From Escherichia phage mEp515, in the sequence record PP180003: a stretch of 53,673 nt of DNA. One strand, given 5' to 3'. Every line of letters starts with the position of its first letter. Position 1 is the stretch's first letter. The notes under the pieces are model-generated. The model had not been told where the DNA came from, ran no database searches, and saw only the letters and a program-made list of their open reading frames with translations. Below, piece after piece: positions 30,502 through 46,544 of this stretch. A program made the position numbers and the translations under genes.

Positions 30502-30999
30502 GTGAATGAAATGATTAACTGGCATGATTATTTCACGTATAAATCCGGGCGTCTTTATTGGAAAGTAAAACCAAAACACGGAAGGGTTTGTGTTGGTGAT
30601 CTTGCTGGTTGTGTGTGCGGTACGACATCATACAGGGTAATACGCTACAAACAAAACCGGTATTTGGAACATCGTATCATATGGGAGATGCACAACGGCC
30701 CGATCCCTGAAGGTTACGAGATAGATCACATTGACCATAACACGCTAAATAACGATATAACGAATCTAAGAATGGTAACCCATCACGAAAACACACTAAA
30801 TGCGTCAATGCGGAAGGATAATAAAAGCGGTTGCGTCGGTGTTATTTGGCACAAGGCGCGCCGTAAATGGATGGCGTACATAGCTGTGAATAAGAAGCCA
30901 AAATATTTAGGTTTATTTGACAGCATAGATGAGGCCGTAGCTGCCCGCCGACAGGCTGAAAAAGAGAACAATTATCACCAAAATCACGGGAGTGTTTAA
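30502..30999 (+). CDS. HNH homing endonuclease with AP2-like domain (copy 2 of 4)
   Basis: HRIIWEMHNGPIPEGYEIDHIDHNTLNNDITNLRMVTHHENT plus AP2-like C-terminus; GTG start with GGGAG SD; inserted between head genes. Confidence 0.8.
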   Translation: MNEMINWHDYFTYKSGRLYWKVKPKHGRVCVGDLAGCVCGTTSYRVIRYKQNRYLEHRIIWEMHNGPIPEGYEIDHIDHNTLNNDITNLRMVTHHENTLNASMRKDNKSGCVGVIWHKARRKWMAYIAVNKKPKYLGLFDSIDEAVAARRQAEKENNYHQNHGSV

Positions 31000-36869: not shown

Positions 36870-37229
36870 TTAGTTGAAATACGCATCAACTCTGTGGGCC
36901 ACGTTTACACCATAAGACTCGCCATCCTTAAACGCATTTAGTGACGCTTTATTATTTTTTGCCGCCTCTTTTAATCCATTGTACTTGCTATTAAGATCTT
37001 TCCATTCAGCGGTTTTTTCTAATACTGGCTTCATTGCGTAATGAATACAGCCAACGTTAAATGGCATTTCCAGATCACCATTACCGTCACCATGCTTTAT
37101 ATCGTACAACTGAGCATTATGCGCACATTCACGAAGTATGTATTTTGCAGACGGAGAGTGCTCAGCATTAGCATTAAGCGCAACCCCTGCAAGTACCGCC
37201 ACGATTAAGATTTTTGCCAGACTTTTCAT
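36870..37229 (-). CDS. Secreted/periplasmic protein of unknown function (opposite-strand moron in tail operon)
   Basis: 119 aa; signal peptide MKSLAKILIVAVLAGVALNANA with AxA cleavage site; two Cys in mature part; minus-strand terminator hairpin at 36837-36856. Confidence 0.6.
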   Translation of the reverse strand: MKSLAKILIVAVLAGVALNANAEHSPSAKYILRECAHNAQLYDIKHGDGNGDLEMPFNVGCIHYAMKPVLEKTAEWKDLNSKYNGLKEAAKNNKASLNAFKDGESYGVNVAHRVDAYFN

Positions 37230-37488: not shown

Positions 37489-40400
37489 ATGTCAACAAAT
37501 TTAGGCACAATTTATTACGAGGTTGATGCAAAAACGGGTCAGCTTCTGACTGTTCAACGCGAGGTAGATCGCGCAACTGGCAAAATGGAAAAGGATTTGG
37601 AGCGCGTGGATAGTGCCGCTACCCAGGCAAGCAAGTCACTGTCAAAGCTATCCTCGATTGCCAGCGCCCTGGGTGCTGCAATGGCAGCGAAAAAAATCAT
37701 TGAGTATGCAAACGCCTGGCAGGAGGTGAATAACAGGCTAATCAATAGCGTTCGTGCTGGTGAATCACTGGCAGACGTTAATCAGCGTGTATTTCAGATC
37801 GCGCAAAATTCACGAAGCGACCTTGATGCTACAGCAGATCTTTACGGTAAATTAGAGCGCTCGACGCGCGACGCTGGTTTATCGACGAAAGCACTTGGTG
37901 ATATGGTTGAAACCATTAACAAAACATTCCGCATTTCTGGCGCTTCTGCCGCTGAAGCAGAAGGCGGGATCCGTCAGTTGGGTCAATCCCTCGCCAAAGG
38001 TGTTTTGAATGGCGATGAATTTAACTCCGTTACAGAAAACGCCACCAGGCTGTCAGAGGGTTTGGCTAAATCACTGGGCGTATCGTCAGCAGAAATGCGC
38101 AAGATGGCAGCAGAAGGGAAAATCACCCGTGAAGCTATCATTAAAGCCCTTAAGGAAATGAAGGCGGAGGTTGATGCTGAGTTTTCTAAACTCACCCCAA
38201 CTATGCAGGAGGCTTTCACTGTTGCAGGCAACAACGCAGCTAAATTTTTCGGCAGCAATTCGTCAATTATGGGCGGGATTGGTGCTTTTAATTCGGCAGT
38301 TGTAACCCTGTCAGAAAACCTTAACGAAATAGCTACTGCATTTATTGGCCTTGCCACTGTGATGGGTGGCAGAGTGGTAAATAAATTCGTAGCTGCAACA
38401 GCAGAGGCATTAACTAACGCTCAGGCAACCAGGGCACAAACGGCAGCGGCACGGCAGGCCGCTCAGAGTGAATTGGCGCTAGCTAACGCTCAGGTGGTAT
38501 CAGCACGGCAATCAGCAGCGGCGGCGGCGGCAAGGCTGAGAGAGGCGCAGGCTTATGCTGCGGCAAATGCCGGAACAAAATTCGAAGTTCAGACGCTGAA
38601 AGAACTGGCTGTAGCCAAAGCACAGAACACAGCGGCATCAAACTCCCTTACTGCGGCAGAGCAGCGCCTTGCTGCGGCCCACACTGCGGCGGCAGCTAAT
38701 GCAGGACTACTAAAAACAGCATTTAGCGCTACTTTAGGCGCAATAGGCGGTATACCCGGCGCGTTAATGCTTGCTGTTTACGGATTGACATCATATGTAG
38801 ATCACGTAGATCAAACGGCAGAGGCAAATCGCAACCTTGCCGATTCAGTGGACGTTAGCACCGAATCACTGGAGCGAATGAGTAAGGCGGCTAAACTGGC
38901 TGGCGCAGATAAGCTACAAATATCAATGGGTCAGTTAGAGGAAGACATTGCCAGTCTTAACAAACAGATTGACCAGGACACACAGGCGCTAGAACTGAAT
39001 AAACAGGCACTGGAGAAAGCAGAGGAGGGGTCACGCGCTTACGCTAATCTATCGAAAGCTAATCAGGAAATAACGGCCCGTCTAACCAGGGAAGAAGCGC
39101 AGCGTGAAGATATTCTCGACCGCCTTAATCAAATGCAGCGCAAATATATTTTGCTTATGCAGGATACAGATCCTCTAATGAAGACCCTTGCCACTTCGTT
39201 GGGGTTGGTAGCAGACGCATACGGAAGAATCACCACAGAAGCAGAACGCGCAGCAGCAGCAACGCAACACGCTTCAGCAGCGCTTAACGCAGATCAACAA
39301 GAACTAATGAATCTGGCAAACCGCCGCCTGGAGCTGGCAAAACTCGACTCCAAAACAGCCAGCAGGGAAAAGGCGATTGATGGGTTTAAGCGTGAGGCTG
39401 AGAAAGCAAACCTGACCGGGGAAGCGTATGAAAAATACATGGCTACAATGACCAAAGCGTACGACACCGAGCAGAAACGCGCCGAAGCTGAAAGAAAGGC
39501 CAGTCATGGGAAAAAAACTGGCGAAAGCGAGGAGAAAAAACATCTAAAAGAGGCTGAACGCCTGCGCAAAGAGCTTGAGAAGCGGGGCCAGAATGTTGCA
39601 GACAAATACAACGTAGAAGCCGCAGCACAACGGAAATTAAAAGAGGATCAGGATGCGCTAAACGCCGCACTTAAAAGCGGGAAAATAAGCGCGGAACAAT
39701 ACAATAAGGCATGGAAAGAATTAATTGGAACCGAGGAACAACGCAAACGTCAGGCTGGTTGGGATAATCTGGTAAACAATGAGCTACAACTACGCGGGCA
39801 ACTAGACCCAATTCAGCAGGCGATGAATGAATGGGCGGTTCGCAAGCAGATGCTCACAGATTTAGGCGCTACAGAGCAATATATGAGGGAGCAAGAAAAA
39901 GCGCATGAGAGGGAAATGCTATCACTTCAGTGGGAGAGGTATAAGGCGCAGTCATTGACCAACCAACTGTTAGGCGATGCTGTTGATGCAATGAGCGGAT
40001 CTGCAACTAACGCGCTTGTCGGCCTGATTAACGGTACTCAAAATTGGCAACAGGCGATCGCTAACATTGGCAATACAATCCTTTCCTCCGTGATTGGTAC
40101 GATTGTTCAAATGGGTACTGAGTGGGTCAAGCAGCAATTGATTGGTGATACAGCAAGAACTATGGCAACAACCAAAGCACTGGCAGAGGCGGCAGCGTTA
40201 TCATCAGCGTGGGCTACCCCTGCATACCTGGCAAACGTTGCCACGATGGGCGGCGCTGGGGCCACTGGACTTACTGGGCTTACTACTGGCGTCGCTGCCG
40301 CCAAAACGCTTGGACTGGCTGGCGCTCGTTATAACGGCGGTGCGGTTAACGGTGGTAGCCTGTATCGCGTAGGGGAACACGGTAAGCCAGAGATCTTCCA

Positions 40401-40644
40401 ATCTCGAAACGGTGAACAGTATATGATTCCTGGTGACAACGGCAGGGTAATACCAAATCGCGACATTGGTGGTGCGGGTGGTGGTAACGTTAGTATAAAC
40501 GCACCGATTAGTGTTTACCCACAAAATGGATGGAGTGATGAGGACGCCAAAAAACTACAGCAGGATATGGAAAAGATCTGCATGGGCCTGATACACCGCG
40601 AATCATCCAGACCGGGCGGAATGCTGCAACCGCGCCGCAAATAA
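37489..40644 (+). CDS. Tail tape measure protein
   Basis: 1051 aa; long coiled-coil/Ala-rich protein with Gly-rich C-terminus. Confidence 0.85.
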   Translation: MSTNLGTIYYEVDAKTGQLLTVQREVDRATGKMEKDLERVDSAATQASKSLSKLSSIASALGAAMAAKKIIEYANAWQEVNNRLINSVRAGESLADVNQRVFQIAQNSRSDLDATADLYGKLERSTRDAGLSTKALGDMVETINKTFRISGASAAEAEGGIRQLGQSLAKGVLNGDEFNSVTENATRLSEGLAKSLGVSSAEMRKMAAEGKITREAIIKALKEMKAEVDAEFSKLTPTMQEAFTVAGNNAAKFFGSNSSIMGGIGAFNSAVVTLSENLNEIATAFIGLATVMGGRVVNKFVAATAEALTNAQATRAQTAAARQAAQSELALANAQVVSARQSAAAAAARLREAQAYAAANAGTKFEVQTLKELAVAKAQNTAASNSLTAAEQRLAAAHTAAAANAGLLKTAFSATLGAIGGIPGALMLAVYGLTSYVDHVDQTAEANRNLADSVDVSTESLERMSKAAKLAGADKLQISMGQLEEDIASLNKQIDQDTQALELNKQALEKAEEGSRAYANLSKANQEITARLTREEAQREDILDRLNQMQRKYILLMQDTDPLMKTLATSLGLVADAYGRITTEAERAAAATQHASAALNADQQELMNLANRRLELAKLDSKTASREKAIDGFKREAEKANLTGEAYEKYMATMTKAYDTEQKRAEAERKASHGKKTGESEEKKHLKEAERLRKELEKRGQNVADKYNVEAAAQRKLKEDQDALNAALKSGKISAEQYNKAWKELIGTEEQRKRQAGWDNLVNNELQLRGQLDPIQQAMNEWAVRKQMLTDLGATEQYMREQEKAHEREMLSLQWERYKAQSLTNQLLGDAVDAMSGSATNALVGLINGTQNWQQAIANIGNTILSSVIGTIVQMGTEWVKQQLIGDTARTMATTKALAEAAALSSAWATPAYLANVATMGGAGATGLTGLTTGVAAAKTLGLAGARYNGGAVNGGSLYRVGEHGKPEIFQSRNGEQYMIPGDNGRVIPNRDIGGAGGGNVSINAPISVYPQNGWSDEDAKKLQQDMEKICMGLIHRESSRPGGMLQPRRK

Positions 40645-40648
40645 TCAA

Positions 40649-40680
40649 AACCCCGGCGCAATGCCGGGGTTATTTTTATT
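40649..40680 (+). terminator. Rho-independent terminator after tape measure gene
   Basis: AACCCCGGC-GCAAT-GCCGGGGTT hairpin plus ATTTTTATT; near-identical stem to terminator at 33798. Confidence 0.75.
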
Positions 40681-40855
40681 CAATTTCATCATTTTTAAAT
40701 TCGCCGTTTGCATAAAGCTGTAATGCTCTTATCAGTTCGTCAGCTTGCTTTTTGTCTATTACAATCATCTCGCAGTCGCTAACGATCCATAATCTTCCGT
40801 CATCTTCAATACTAAGATCAATCCTTCTACATTCTTCAGTATCATGAATAATCAT
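40676..40855 (-). CDS. Small ORF (59 aa, acidic)
   Basis: Not in ORF track; weak SD. Confidence 0.25.
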   Translation of the reverse strand: MIIHDTEECRRIDLSIEDDGRLWIVSDCEMIVIDKKQADELIRALQLYANGEFKNDEIE

Positions 40856-40893
40856 TATAAACCTTCATCATGTTATTGATTTCGTGAATAAAT

Positions 40894-41064
40894 TTACTCA
40901 AATCTTGTATATCCTCTCTCAATTTTCCCTCCGTGTACACTTCTGGCAAATACCGCGTCAGTATACCTAAAAAATGGGCATGTATATGTATCCCCTTTAC
41001 TATCCATATATTTTAGCACCCATGCTATGCGTTTTACGTTGCTTTTATTTGCCGGATTTTTCAT
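40894..41064 (-). CDS. Hypothetical small protein (56 aa)
   Basis: Internal ATG with GGAGG SD. Confidence 0.35.
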   Translation of the reverse strand: MKNPANKSNVKRIAWVLKYMDSKGDTYTCPFFRYTDAVFARSVHGGKIERGYTRFE

Positions 41065-41327
41065 TTTATTTTTCCTCCGCAAATCACAACCTGCCGTTTC
41101 TTGCTATGTAGCTGCGAGCAAACATCACCTGCCAGATGTTCCAAATCTCACGCCACGTAAATTTATCATCTTCCATATCTCACCCCGTCGCGCTTGTATG
41201 GTTCGCCATCAGCAAACGGGATTAACTCATCGTTTGCCACCATTCGATTAAACCAGTCTTTAAGAATAACCAGGGAGAACCGGATCCCGTAACTGTGCAA
41301 TTCGCGCCACCTCATTTATGTGCCACC

Positions 41328-41834
41328 CTATTTACCGTGATTTGGATGAAAACCGTATTTAATTTCGGCTTCTTGCCTTGCCTTGATTGCATCATCTTTG
41401 CTTTTGAATACCCCTAAATGTTTTAATTTTCCGTTGATTCTGATAACTGCGCACCATTTACGCAATCTTTCAAGCCAATAAACACCAGCACAGCCGGATT
41501 TATTATTATGGTTGCGACTTCTGTTGTGGTTATTGTCTTTGCAGGTAACTAGCCGCAAATTTTCTATATGGTTGTTTACCTTATTGTGATCGATATGATC
41601 TATTTCCATTCCTTCCGGGATTGGTCCGTTGTGCATTTCCCATATAATTCTATGCTCTTGGTATATCCTCCTGTTAAACCCTACATGTATATACCCACTT
41701 CGTTTATGAAGGCACCCGGCTCGCTTTCCCGCATATCTTGAATTCCAGGTTTTGGAAACGCCATTTCTTGGCTTCCATAATATAGCGCCGTCACTGTATA
41801 TAAAATAATCATTCCAGTTAATTACTTGTGACAT
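41328..41834 (-). CDS. HNH homing endonuclease with AP2-like domain (copy 3 of 4)
   Basis: HRIIWEMHNGPIPEGMEIDHIDHNKVNNHIENLRLVTCKDNN plus AP2-like C-terminus. Confidence 0.8.
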   Translation of the reverse strand: MSQVINWNDYFIYSDGAILWKPRNGVSKTWNSRYAGKRAGCLHKRSGYIHVGFNRRIYQEHRIIWEMHNGPIPEGMEIDHIDHNKVNNHIENLRLVTCKDNNHNRSRNHNNKSGCAGVYWLERLRKWCAVIRINGKLKHLGVFKSKDDAIKARQEAEIKYGFHPNHGK

Positions 41835-42076
41835 CCGCGCACCCCTGACAATTCATTAAATTTGTGATGCTCGACGATTACCCATGCTTTCAAGTCCTGG
41901 CTATAAACACGCCAATCTAAATTGGCGCGGAAGGCGTAGCCGTAGCCGTCCTTTAATTTTTTGGGTGCAACATCCTTGTTTAAAAACGCGTTCAGAAGTG
42001 CTTTTGCTTTTTTGATTACGTGTCCAGGTGCGTTTTTCTGTGCTTTCAGGTTTTTACCAATCGCCACCAATTTCAT
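41822..42076 (-). CDS. Hypothetical basic protein (84 aa)
   Basis: Lys-rich; start MKLVAIGKNLK. Confidence 0.45.
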   Translation of the reverse strand: MKLVAIGKNLKAQKNAPGHVIKKAKALLNAFLNKDVAPKKLKDGYGYAFRANLDWRVYSQDLKAWVIVEHHKFNELSGVRGCHK

Positions 42077-42093
42077 AACACACCCCACAATCC

Positions 42094-42249
42094 ATTAGCT
42101 GACCACTTTCAGGAAGAAATCACGGTACTCATTTTCCTTCGCATTCATCATGAATTGACCGTATTTGAATGCGTCATCAAAGCCTTTAACTATCGCCACT
42201 TCCACCTGTTCGAATGCGTTGTTCAGCATTACCACTACATAACGCTTCA
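42094..42249 (-). CDS. Hypothetical small protein (51 aa)
   Basis: Not in ORF track; AAGGGGG SD. Confidence 0.35.
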
Positions 42250-42419
42250 TGTTGGCCCCCTTTGTCGGTACTGCTTTTTCTTCTTGCTTACTATATACAT
42301 CTTGTCACGCCTTATGTGAAGCCATTTTGTAAACTGGTTATAATTCTTGTGATGAATTTCTCATTTTTCGCGTAGAAGCGCGTAAAGATGTATGCAATAT
42401 GTAACTTATAGGGGGAATC

Positions 42420-42773
42420 ATGCCAGAAGTTTTCAGATGGACGCCGCAAAGAAGCTACAGCGTGACCAGGGAACCAAATGTGTCTGTCATTAAACTTGGT
42501 GATGGGTATGAACAGCGCCAGGCGAAAGGGATTAACACATTGCTTGACAGCTACACCCTGGTCTTTAAAGGCAGTAGCGCAGGATGCGGTGATGGTGGGA
42601 ACGTGGCGATCCAGGCAGAAGCATTCTTGAGGGCGCGCGGCGCTGTCGATGCTTTCTACTGGACGCCTTCGATGGATGGGGTGCAAAGGCTTTTCGTTTG
42701 CCGTAGCTGGAGCATGACCAAAGACGGGCCTGTGTACACGCTAAACGCAACGTTTGAACAAGTTGTTGGCTAA
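42420..42773 (+). CDS. Minor tail protein M (lambda gpM-like)
   Basis: 117 aa; FRWTP...GDGYEQRQ...FYWTP...ATFEQVVG matches lambda gpM landmarks as I recall them. Confidence 0.85.
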   Translation: MPEVFRWTPQRSYSVTREPNVSVIKLGDGYEQRQAKGINTLLDSYTLVFKGSSAGCGDGGNVAIQAEAFLRARGAVDAFYWTPSMDGVQRLFVCRSWSMTKDGPVYTLNATFEQVVG

Positions 42774-42784
42774 TGGGGGTTGTT

Positions 42785-42970
42785 ATGTACGGGACTTGTG
42801 TAGTTGACAAAACTTACGCTTTTACATTGTTTGACGACTATGAGATCAACGACCTTACTGTAAAGGCTGACAATGGCGATACATGGTATCTTCATGATGT
42901 TGGTGATGGTTATGTGGGATGCAGATCCAGAGAAGGCAAGGAGGTTTTATTTTTGGTTGATGGCGTATAA
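42785..42970 (+). CDS. Hypothetical small protein (61 aa)
   Basis: ATG with GGGGG SD. Confidence 0.35.
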   Translation: MYGTCVVDKTYAFTLFDDYEINDLTVKADNGDTWYLHDVGDGYVGCRSREGKEVLFLVDGV

Positions 42971-42974
42971 TAAC

Positions 42975-43000
42975 AACCCCGCTTCGCGCGGGGTTTTCTT
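42975..43000 (+). terminator. Rho-independent terminator
   Basis: AACCCCGC-TTCGC-GCGGGGTT hairpin plus TTTCTT. Confidence 0.7.
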
Positions 43001-43001
43001 G

Positions 43002-43139
43002 TCAGTAGTTAATGTGCATCAAACTCATTGGGTGAGCGTGCGCCATGTTGTTTGCTATTGCCGCCCAGTCCCAACCAGCAGCGTGAACACCAAATACGAT
43101 CAAGCCCATTATTATTAGCGCCAAAACTTCTATTTTCAT
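43002..43139 (-). CDS. Small membrane peptide (45 aa)
   Basis: AGGTGA SD; MKIEVLALIIMGLIVFGVHAAG TM segment. Confidence 0.3.
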   Translation of the reverse strand: MKIEVLALIIMGLIVFGVHAAGWDWAAIANNMAHAHPMSLMHINY

Positions 43140-43149
43140 AATCTGTCAC

Positions 43150-43398
43150 CTATAAGTTATCACGCAGATAATTAACGCCCTTATCAGTAACGAATGAATG
43201 GTTGACCTGGTTTTCATCCGTCATGATGATGAATAACTTTTCCTGTAGGTATTTCGCTTTCGGGTACAGTGTTAAACAGACCTGGTACAGTATCCCGCGC
43301 TCAATCAGCAAATGAATAAATTCGTGTTCATGATAACCGATAAGGCGGGCGGCCTGTTTCAACGTGTACACATAATCCCCGTGATTACGCCGCGCCAT
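43150..43398 (-). CDS. Small HTH DNA-binding protein (82 aa)
   Basis: HTH-like YTLKQAARLIGYHEHEFIHLLIERGIL. Confidence 0.5.
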   Translation of the reverse strand: MARRNHGDYVYTLKQAARLIGYHEHEFIHLLIERGILYQVCLTLYPKAKYLQEKLFIIMTDENQVNHSFVTDKGVNYLRDNL

Positions 43399-43407
43399 AC
43401 TCCCACC

Positions 43408-43758
43408 CTATTTATTGAACGCAGACAAATTGTCGATACAGAAATCTTTAGCCGCTTTTTCGTATTCACGTTTTGCTTCAGGATCGTCAGCCGGGAAACC
43501 TTTTGCGTGTATTTCGCCAGGGCAAGACTGATCCATAGAATCAGCAAATTCAACATTGACGTTAAAGTTAATATCTTTCGGGTTCATCTCTTCCACCTTA
43601 TCCGGTACTTGGACCGGAGTAATATCAAAATCACGATAGTTAAACCCACAGCGAAGTAATTCACGACCTTCATCACGCGCCGCAGCATATGTGTCAAATA
43701 GGCCCATGCGTTCCCATCCGCATTTATTGGTAAACACGTCTAAACTGTATTTTTGCAT
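43408..43758 (-). CDS. Hypothetical protein (116 aa)
   Basis: ORF; no motif recognised. Confidence 0.5.
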   Translation of the reverse strand: MQKYSLDVFTNKCGWERMGLFDTYAAARDEGRELLRCGFNYRDFDITPVQVPDKVEEMNPKDINFNVNVEFADSMDQSCPGEIHAKGFPADDPEAKREYEKAAKDFCIDNLSAFNK

Positions 43759-43770
43759 TTTGTTAACCTC

Positions 43771-43926
43771 TCATTTGACGGGTTCGATCTCGTACCCCAA
43801 AACGCGTTCGTCTTCAGCAAGTAAAAGCGCGTCAACCAGCGCATCGCCTTCATCTTTATACAGGGCCACAAGCATTTCCCTGCCATCAGCCAGGAACACC
43901 GTCAACCTCCACACCTTATCATCCAT
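43771..43926 (-). CDS. Small acidic protein (51 aa)
   Basis: Internal ATG with strong GGAGGTG SD; first gene of minus-strand island. Confidence 0.4.
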   Translation of the reverse strand: MDDKVWRLTVFLADGREMLVALYKDEGDALVDALLLAEDERVLGYEIEPVK

Positions 43927-44053
43927 CGCACACCTCCGCGCCATTTTGTTAACCCTGCTTCCTTTTGAGTACAATATACATATTGTAAAAAGCGCTATCA
44001 ACCGTTTTGGTATGATTTAGCGTGACGTAGATCACAAATTGCAAGGTGATAAA

Positions 44054-45977: not shown

Positions 45978-46544
45978 GTGAACTGGTCTGAATTGTTTGT
46001 TTATGATGAAGATTCTCCTTCATGTTTAAGGTGGAAAGTCACCGCTAACAGCAGAACGGCGAGGACTGGCGATGCGGCAGGAAAAATAGTAGCGGCAAAA
46101 AGCGGCAATAAGTACTGGAAAATCACATGGAAGGGCCGTCGCTATTATGCTCACCGGATTGTTTACGAATTATGCAGTGGCAGAAAATTAAAACGCAGTG
46201 AGATCATCGATCACATTGATGGTAATGGGCTTAATAATAAATTCAATAACATACGCGTAACAGATAAAAAAGGTAACGCCAGAAATATGACCATAGGTCG
46301 CGCGACAAGGGAGAGCGGATTGCCATTTGGGATATGTTGGCACGCAGAAGGGAGATCTATTAGAGCACGTATCACCGCTGATAACGACAAAAGAGTTAGT
46401 AAATCATTTAGCGTTATAGCGTGCGGTGGACTTGAAATGGCTATTAATGCCGCCGTCGCGTGGCGGTCATTCATGATTGAAGAGCTAAATAAAGCTGGCG
46501 CAGGATACACGAAATTACACGAAACAGGGGGTTTATATGTCTAG
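45978..46544 (+). CDS. HNH homing endonuclease with AP2-like domain (copy 4 of 4)
   Basis: AHRIVYELCSGRKLKRSEIIDHIDGNGLNNKFNNIRV; GTG start with GGGGG SD; inserted between tail genes I and J. Confidence 0.75.
   Translation: MNWSELFVYDEDSPSCLRWKVTANSRTARTGDAAGKIVAAKSGNKYWKITWKGRRYYAHRIVYELCSGRKLKRSEIIDHIDGNGLNNKFNNIRVTDKKGNARNMTIGRATRESGLPFGICWHAEGRSIRARITADNDKRVSKSFSVIACGGLEMAINAAVAWRSFMIEELNKAGAGYTKLHETGGLYV

Follow-up and report, generated by a model that had tools for sequence, protein, structure and literature searches.

An opposite-strand island in the tail module of Escherichia phage mEp515: a conserved two-gene core with a ParE_like family protein, and a nested HNH endonuclease gene

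The stretch analysed here is the 53,673-nucleotide (nt) sequence of Escherichia phage mEp515 (PP180003), called the window below; all coordinates refer to it. Between the tape measure gene and gpM, the minus strand carries an island of seven tightly packed genes, established from the list of open reading frames (ORFs) and from direct reading of that strand. We are concerned mainly with the first two of these genes, which encode proteins of 51 and 84 amino acids (aa), and with the HNH endonuclease gene behind them. An initial annotation, made from the sequence alone, had described such an island at 40676-42249; its upper end is in fact 42250, and the 18-nt gap reported within the 51-aa/84-aa tandem agrees with the gene coordinates. 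The features of the region are as follows.

37489-40644, plus strand: tape measure gene, named so in relatives
40649-40671, both strands: bidirectional intrinsic terminator, stem of 9-10 base pairs with 7 GC pairs, T-runs on both strands
40855-40676, minus strand: 59-aa gene, acidic product, phrog_13627 (E=7.8e-8), variably present
41064-40894, minus strand: 56-aa gene, basic product, ATG start within a 62-aa ORF that opens with TTG, variably present
41176-41084, minus strand: 30-aa gene, a 93-nt coding sequence in the annotation of relatives, variably present
41315-41166, minus strand: 49-aa gene, variably present
41834-41328, minus strand: HNH gene, 168 aa, HNH_3, overlapping the 84-aa gene by 13 nt
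42076-41822, minus strand: 84-aa gene, starting 18 nt past the 51-aa gene, Pfam ParE_like PF24732
42250-42095, minus strand: 51-aa gene, first in the operon, candidate partner or antitoxin, phrog_29810
42320-42292, minus strand: putative sigma-70 promoter of the island operon, TTCACA, 17 nt, TATATA
42251-42419, no strand assigned: divergent intergenic region between gpM (plus) and the 51-aa gene (minus), highly conserved
about 42369-42386, no strand assigned: direct repeat TACGCG-N4-TACGCG with a 10-nt period, invariant in 8/8 aligned genomes
42420-42773, plus strand: gpM, Pfam Phage_min_tail (E=2.4e-29)

The region matches mEp010, mEp044, mEp554, mEp013, mEp021 and MagusPhagus at 85-92% nucleotide identity. 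These phages belong with the mEpimmI group, Nus-dependent, non-lambdoid E. coli phages with genomes of 53-55 kb (PMC11893012); the text and supplements of that genome paper do not discuss the island genes, toxins or HNH genes. As the initial annotation had judged by eye, the island is AT-rich relative to its flanks: its GC content is 40.3%, compared to 50.1% for the tape measure gene and 48.6% for gpM, and none of the sampled 1575-nt stretches of the window was lower. Across related loci the ratio of non-synonymous to synonymous substitution rates (dN/dS) was 0.05 for the 51-aa gene and 0.07 for the 84-aa gene, with dS around 1 for both, and 0.09, 0.06, 0.11 and 0.16 for the 49-, 30-, 56- and 59-aa genes. 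Because dN/dS stays between 0.05 and 0.16 throughout (dS 0.5-1.3), the island ORFs are real genes under purifying selection and not chance ORFs. The small genes downstream are irregularly distributed, the 49-aa gene being present in 7/30 IMG/VR loci and the 30-aa gene detected in 24 loci. Searches of Pfam, PHROG and NCBIfam gave no family match for the 56-aa protein. The terminator at 40649-40671, which is also annotated in mEp010, mEp554 and mEp021, closes both the tape measure transcript on the plus strand and the island operon on the minus strand. An Rfam scan of this island and of a second one (island 2, described below) for an RNA antitoxin or small RNA gave just a sub-threshold chance match overlapping the terminator.

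On the gpM side, the intergenic region keeps a mean column identity of 89% across 8 genomes, despite a dS around 1 in the adjoining genes. It holds the putative island promoter, a 9/12 match to the consensus that is kept in relatives. This element was read from the sequence; the promoter scan did not list it, its -10 hexamer having an A at position 6. It has a 13-nt spacer/-10 motif, ACAAnATGTATAT, in common with the promoter match of island 2 (44001-43973), and we presume it to be active. The TACGCG-N4-TACGCG repeat, some 50 nt further upstream than the putative -35 element, might bind a protein or form a small hairpin in the leader of gpM.

The 51-aa and 84-aa genes are the conserved minimal core of the island. 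We used two sets of related IMG/VR loci, 30 found via the 84-aa gene by alignment of close relatives and 44 carrying the 51-aa gene. In all 44 of the latter, an 84-aa gene follows 16-21 nt downstream, and its ORF is intact in 43; the exception, L084 (about 2674-2924), is frameshifted by a 1-nt deletion in an A-run and keeps an intact 51-aa gene. The 51-aa ORF has exactly 51 codons for amino acids in 41/44 loci, and a 55-aa N-terminal variant is found in the other three. Conversely, 28/30 loci found with the 84-aa gene also have the 51-aa gene. The pair is present in 6/6 related phages, at the promoter-proximal end of the operon, while all genes downstream of it vary among them. In E. coli O157:H7 LSU61 and in around a dozen viral contigs, nothing but the pair separates the tape measure gene from gpM. 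The 51-aa gene was detected, always as a single chromosomal copy, in 34 of 5426 complete E. coli genomes. A search with the pair region also matched 34 genomes, 33 of them shared with the 51-aa set and with the 51-aa gene beside the 84-aa gene; the remaining one is strain UMNK88. Over about 78 loci from IMG/VR and complete E. coli genomes, every 51-aa gene was accompanied by an 84-aa gene. In E. coli MFDS1019527 (L091, about 701-856), the 51-aa gene has lost one base in codon 5, next to an intact 84-aa gene; this frameshift and that of L084 may be real inactivations or sequencing errors, and we give them no weight. Two elements are not described in earlier literature, the genome paper of the group included: the conserved pairing with an orphan 51-aa protein and the natural variants that lack this partner.

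The pair had initially been taken for two basic proteins with no diagnostic motif. The 84-aa protein is indeed basic, with an isoelectric point (pI) of 10.1, but the 51-aa protein is near-neutral (pI 6.1), and a family signature is present: the 84-aa protein passes the gathering score of Pfam PF24732, ParE_like (31.4 vs 24.4 bits, E=2e-7), as do all its homologues, the relatives scoring 29.9-68.2 bits. It also matches phrog_1525. Its close homologues are all 84-aa proteins from E. coli phages or prophages, and RefSeq/PGAP already labels the prophage copies "ParE family toxin-like protein". A profile search of 1.8 billion representative proteins returned only ten proteins at E≤0.001, so the family is narrow; a second indexed search seeded with distant members gave more homologues, all of them PF24732. 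From the sequences retrieved, PF24732 appears to be known only from phages and prophages. It is a computational grouping, already catalogued and apparently untouched by experiment: in the experimental literature, we found no paper mentioning the family.

The same Pfam family includes ParE-like proteins of jumbo phages, such as Klebsiella K64-1 (gp471) and RaK2, Escherichia 121Q and PBECO4, and Yersinia fHe-Yen9-04; two jumbo-phage records name the homologue "YafQ-like ribonuclease toxin". These proteins are 22-28% identical to the 84-aa protein and give the best structural matches among viral models, with template modelling (TM) scores of 0.7-0.8 and E values of 1e-5. Unlike mEp515, however, the phages that carry them are lytic and of about 350 kb, and neither a homologue of the 51-aa gene nor an annotated antitoxin accompanies them. 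P0091, a distant ParE_like homologue, was observed on a metagenome contig with a ParA gene nearby (L009, 2864-3255). Twenty nt upstream of it lies a 38-aa very acidic, Cys-rich ORF (pI 4.05), which may represent another arrangement with a small partner, on a plasmid or phage-plasmid.

Direct sequence searches of PDB chains with the 84-aa protein and with its family profile gave chance matches only. A first AlphaFold 2 model, built on a shallow alignment of close relatives, was unusable, with a predicted local distance difference test (pLDDT) score of 55; the model built from an alignment with distant homologues reached 85.5 and has the topology β-β-α-β-β-β-α. Taking the RelE/ParE fold as a compact alpha/beta structure with one or more N-terminal helices on an antiparallel sheet of 3-4 strands, this model gives the 84-aa protein a RelE/ParE-superfamily toxin fold. 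The Pfam name implies ParE, yet in the fold search solved structures of the ribonuclease type (HigB, YoeB, RelE, YafQ) outrank ParE proteins. Across the family, in an alignment that reaches down to 22-28% identity, K40, L41 and R56 are invariant and K23, G44, H70 and N74 nearly so.

Much less can be said of the 51-aa protein. Its only family is phrog_29810, and its 60/60 homologous clusters come from E. coli phages or prophages; the "68-aa" versions carry an unconserved N-terminal extension that is a gene-calling artefact. It shows no homology to the genes upstream of the distant ParE_like homologues. By eye, a strand-helix-turn-helix arrangement can be read as an RHH domain, but a hand-made RHH alignment lent this no support and we do not claim it.

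How the two genes work together can be approached from their arrangement. A small gene with a non-basic product followed by a gene for a basic toxin-fold protein, within one operon that has its own promoter-like element and terminator, makes the pair look like a toxin-antitoxin (TA) cassette. The region would be a moron-type accessory slot in the tail module of an mEp021-like temperate coliphage of the mEpimmI group, and the island a single minus-strand operon running from the sigma-70-like promoter beside gpM to the bidirectional terminator behind the tape measure gene. Its core would be a bicistronic cassette, expressed by host RNA polymerase independently of the late tail transcript. The 84-aa product would be the effector, and we infer that it is more probably a ribosome-dependent mRNA endonuclease of the RelE/YoeB/YafQ/HigB type than a gyrase poison of the ParE type, using the conserved basic and His residues K23, K40, R56 and H70. 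It would be toxic, and the 51-aa protein would bind, restrain and so neutralise it. The 49-, 30-, 56- and 59-aa genes are independently shuffled accessory mini-genes. The HNH gene is a separate selfish element, inserted exactly where the 84-aa gene meets the 49-aa gene and translationally nested in the end of the former.

In its layout, the pair resembles RelE/ParE type II TA systems (YefM-YoeB, DinJ-YafQ, HigBA, RelBE, ParDE), in which the toxin gene is directly preceded, within one operon, by a small gene with a non-basic product, here at a distance of 18 nt. The differences lie in the partner, in which no antitoxin or DNA-binding domain can be recognised, which at 51 aa falls below the usual length and which has diverged less than the toxin; in addition, the toxin-fold gene is kept without its partner in some genomes, and the two family members queried have no plasmid match. 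Another comparison is the PaaR2-PaaA2-ParE2 module of the E. coli O157:H7 prophage CP-933P, in which a RelE/ParE-superfamily toxin is likewise carried by a prophage and has a very small antitoxin devoid of a DNA-binding domain. Structures 5czf and 5cw7, which we take to belong to this module, were among the fold matches.

Several observations weigh against a TA function. Three sequences, the diverged viral contigs L039 and L041 and the complete E. coli genome UMNK88, keep an intact 84-aa gene but lack the 51-aa gene. In all three, a clean deletion of the 51-aa ORF puts the 84-aa gene directly behind the ribosome-binding site of the 51-aa gene, and in UMNK88 no other 51-aa gene was found in the genome at blastn sensitivity. 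Between L039 and L041, the 84-aa gene differs by 7 synonymous and 2 non-synonymous codon changes, so the partner-less gene is still constrained. Orphan antitoxins are common and orphan toxins rare in the decay of TA systems, and a 51-aa gene that never stands alone is the opposite pattern. The partner is more conserved than the putative toxin (mean protein distance 0.09 vs 0.20), and the divergences of the two proteins barely correlate (Spearman 0.14). Classical toxin families are common on plasmids; a tblastn search of 72,556 plasmids with the window's 84-aa protein and with P0091 gave no match. The 51-aa protein has no match in Pfam, NCBIfam, PADLOC or the PDB, either as a single sequence or as a profile, and no RHH, Phd/YefM, HTH or other antitoxin or DNA-binding domain was recognised in these searches; PADLOC and NCBIfam have no match for the pair. 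No inverted repeat or operator-like palindrome was found in 42251-42419. In the jumbo phages, the homologues lie in long arrays of early-type, small co-directional genes, with non-homologous neighbours and no recognisable antitoxin. Finally, the matches to solved toxin structures are modest (Z ≤5.5, Foldseek E around 0.09), and hhalign of the family with E. coli YoeB and YafQ (sequences 100% identical to 2a6q_E and 4ml2_A) was not significant (E=0.08 and 0.2). The YoeB comparison places R56 opposite the catalytic R65, though at that same non-significant E=0.08; because neither comparison is significant, we claim no catalytic-residue assignment. None of this is decisive against a TA module: certain mutants in chromosomal antitoxins can live, and expression of the partner-less alleles could be low. 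The suspicion of a TA pair in the initial annotation gains a ParE_like protein with a toxin fold, a small partner gene 18 nt upstream and the core status of the pair, while the 51-aa protein is only a candidate antitoxin, a role that the partner-less 84-aa genes partly contradict. Given the partner-less variants and their decay pattern, the conservation of the partner, the missing operator, the jumbo phages and the plasmids, we rate a type II TA-like module, the likeliest reading, as somewhat short of an even chance.

Many of the same observations suit a phage-specific effector of RelE/YafQ fold that acts alone, with the 51-aa protein as a co-transcribed accessory (a modulator, adaptor or regulator). 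Such an effector might be an early ribonuclease or ribosome-binding factor that serves to take over the host, to exclude superinfecting phages or to counter defences. At its natural level of expression the host would tolerate it, and the 51-aa protein would depend on it without being needed for cell survival. The constrained, intact 84-aa gene of the viable lysogen UMNK88 and of the two viral contigs fits this account, as do a 51-aa gene that never occurs alone, in reverse of the usual TA decay, the absence of co-variation between the two proteins and the lack of plasmid matches for the 84-aa protein and P0091. The 70 phage records with homologues, mostly from jumbo phages of about 350 kb and with no annotated antitoxin, point the same way, some of these homologues lying in terminal-repeat or early regions. 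However, to our knowledge, nearly all RelE/ParE-fold proteins that have been characterised are toxins whose antidote is encoded next to them. Islands made of the pair alone fit a two-component unit, as does the tight and length-invariant pairing, and the uncharacterised genes upstream of the jumbo-phage homologues could be antitoxins that escape recognition. We hold a self-sufficient effector to be possible, and only tentatively. A bolder form, which we consider doubtful, takes PF24732 as a whole for a branch of the RelE/ParE fold confined to phages, whose members act against the host translation apparatus or defences and are no addiction toxins. They would work singly in lytic jumbo phages and, in the temperate mEpimmI coliphages, together with a dedicated 51-aa modulator of a previously unrecognised family whose loss is not lethal to the lysogen. 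If this were true, the cassette would represent a two-component phage module of a new kind, with a toxin fold at its base.

The two genes might also be functionally unrelated neighbours, the 84-aa protein being a degenerate, non-toxic descendant of the toxin fold with, for example, a nucleic-acid binding role, and the pairing reflecting only that both were inherited together next to the promoter of a moron operon. Tight gene spacing is the norm in phage genomes, purifying selection is similar on all island genes, including the variably present ones, and both the modest structural similarity to solved toxins and the survival of the 84-aa gene without the 51-aa gene would be expected. Yet most of the residues that vary little or not at all across the family are basic or His (K23, K40, R56, H70), which fits a conserved RNA-directed active site, and in about 78 loci the 51-aa gene never lacks the 84-aa gene beside it, while all other island genes shuffle freely. 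We find this account improbable.

As to the HNH gene, its product matches HNH_3 with E=8.4e-20 (70.6 bits vs a 24.8-bit cutoff), phrog_99 over residues 5-168 (E=4e-62) and the PADLOC HEase profile (E=2.7e-10). The initial label of AP2-HNH endonuclease is therefore solid in its HNH part; for the AP2 part, the Pfam match of the isolated C-terminal 55 aa is sub-threshold (E=0.084, 13.6 vs 33.3 bits), and the C-terminus is homologous to other phage HNH endonucleases, as the phrog_99 coverage indicates. Pairwise and multiple alignments with HNH-free relatives delimit an insert of about 505 nt at the 84-aa/49-aa junction, the HNH ATG being embedded in the last codons of the 84-aa gene. In HNH-free phages, the 49-aa start overlaps the 84-aa stop codon (ATGA). 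Such empty sites were found in mEp554, L023 and L034-L037, where the stop/start overlap reads …CATAAATGAGGTGG…, the junction of mEp554 and L023 being …GGGGCACATAAATGAGGTGGCG…. In the window, the insert is flanked by the two copies of an imperfect 15-nt direct repeat.

41836-41822, minus strand: left copy, GGATGTCACAAGTAA, the functional 3' end of the 84-aa gene (G-C-H-K-stop), containing the HNH ATG
41327-41312, minus strand: right copy, GGTGGCACATAAATGA, a remnant of an mEp554-type 84-aa 3' end (G-A-H-K-stop)

The right copy lies just past the HNH stop codon and overlaps the 49-aa start, and the same remnant is present in L014. The gene is absent from mEp010, mEp013, mEp021, mEp044, mEp554 and MagusPhagus. 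Besides the window, the occupied sites are viral contig L016, which is 96% identical, and L014, a prophage of E. coli E21845 (2044-2526). Between E21845 and the window, the HNH proteins are 52% identical, with the first 7 and last 20 or so residues nearly identical, and the flanking 84-aa genes are 93-97% identical, which suggests a cassette exchange of HNH genes at one fixed site.

The initial annotation had proposed that the island arrived by homing-endonuclease-mediated insertion, and it looked to relatives lacking the island for the insertion boundaries. What this comparison bounds is the HNH insert; all six related phages and about 70 related viral or prophage loci carry an island at this position, mostly without any HNH gene. 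The position of the HNH gene inside the island, the four HNH_3 paralogues in the window, which indicate that homing elements are active in the lineage, and HNH genes at other sites near the island in L027 and L022 would favour delivery of the whole opposite-strand island into the tail operon by the HNH endonuclease. However, the island occurs HNH-free in the six related phages, in 28/30 IMG/VR loci with the 84-aa gene and in most E. coli prophages, and these islands always hold the 84-aa gene, together with the 51-aa gene except in two deletion variants. Moreover, occupied and empty sites differ only by the HNH ORF of about 505 nt and its flanking 15-nt imperfect repeat. Because HNH-free relatives carry the island and the difference is confined to this ORF, the HNH gene is a later passenger and not the vehicle of the island; delivery of the island by it is most improbable.

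The four HNH_3 paralogues lie at 41834-41328 (minus), 30502-30990 (plus), 6591-6097 (minus) and 45978-46544 (plus); the last three are 49%, 49% and 34% identical, respectively, to the island copy, and the phage has at least four genes of this free-standing kind. Different HNH genes were seen at other sites near the island in L027 (3185-3664, a contig shared with L059; 51% identical) and L022 (2294-2767; 42% identical), that of L027 sitting in the conserved gpM/51-aa intergenic region on the gpM strand. By its sequence features, the island gene is best classed as an ordinary free-standing homing-endonuclease gene. Like other free-standing phage HNH genes (HNH_3 with an AP2-like C-terminus), it has an HNH_3 domain, shows presence/absence polymorphism at a precise intergenic site and has several diverged paralogues in the same genome. 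It differs from these in its sub-threshold AP2 match, a start codon nested in the end of the upstream gene, the imperfect 15-nt flanking repeat, and the 52%-identical gene with near-identical termini at the same site in E. coli E21845.

The island as a whole, with its putative promoter, appears to behave like a moron. Lambdoid morons include HK97 gp15 and lambda lom and bor. As in these, an accessory unit lies between tail genes, with a deviant composition, a promoter-like element, a terminator and a content that varies among relatives. In contrast to these, the mEp515 island stands on the strand opposite to the late operon, comprises up to seven genes and has a two-gene core that is conserved across the phage group and not sporadic.

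Other small genes were observed in the same part of the window. A 65-aa gene on the tail strand (42773-42970, plus; phrog_3249, E=1.6e-22) directly follows gpM and is present in all relatives. Between it and gpL, island 2 occupies the opposite strand (42975-44001, minus) with the same build: a promoter match, four genes, one of them a small ORF, and a bidirectional terminator at 42975-42995. Its other features are the following.

44001-43973, minus strand: strong promoter match TTGATA-17-TATATT, 10/12
43926-43771, minus strand: 51-aa gene, not detectably related to the 51-aa protein of the first island
43758-43408, minus strand: gene for a 116-aa acidic protein, phrog_38567
43398-43150, minus strand: gene for an 82-aa protein with a KilAC-like antirepressor domain, PF03374 (E=1.5e-6)

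Paralogy between the first 51-aa genes of the two islands was considered and rejected (hhalign E=0.23). Just upstream of the tape measure gene, a low-GC gene (0.36-0.42) at 36870-37229 on the minus strand encodes a 119-aa protein with a signal-peptide-like N-terminus (MKSLAKILIVAVLAGVALNANA…), and may be a further moron with a secreted or periplasmic product.

Taken at its own strength, the outcome is an annotation upgrade and a modest lead: it does not overturn current understanding and would not surprise specialists, but it offers good material for experiments, the phage being tractable. On a small scale, the HNH gene illustrates cleanly how a homing-endonuclease gene can be nested in the last codons of its neighbour, with apparent cassette swapping at one site. 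Since mEp021 and its relatives can be cultured on E. coli K-12, the question of the pair is directly testable, and the partner-less variants of the UMNK88 type are a ready-made genetic contrast. If the pair proves functional, whether as a TA module or as an effector with its modulator, it would bring the RelE/ParE world a new family of minimal partners, the 51-aa proteins, and would give a first functional handle on Pfam ParE_like, a phage-only family that includes many jumbo phages.

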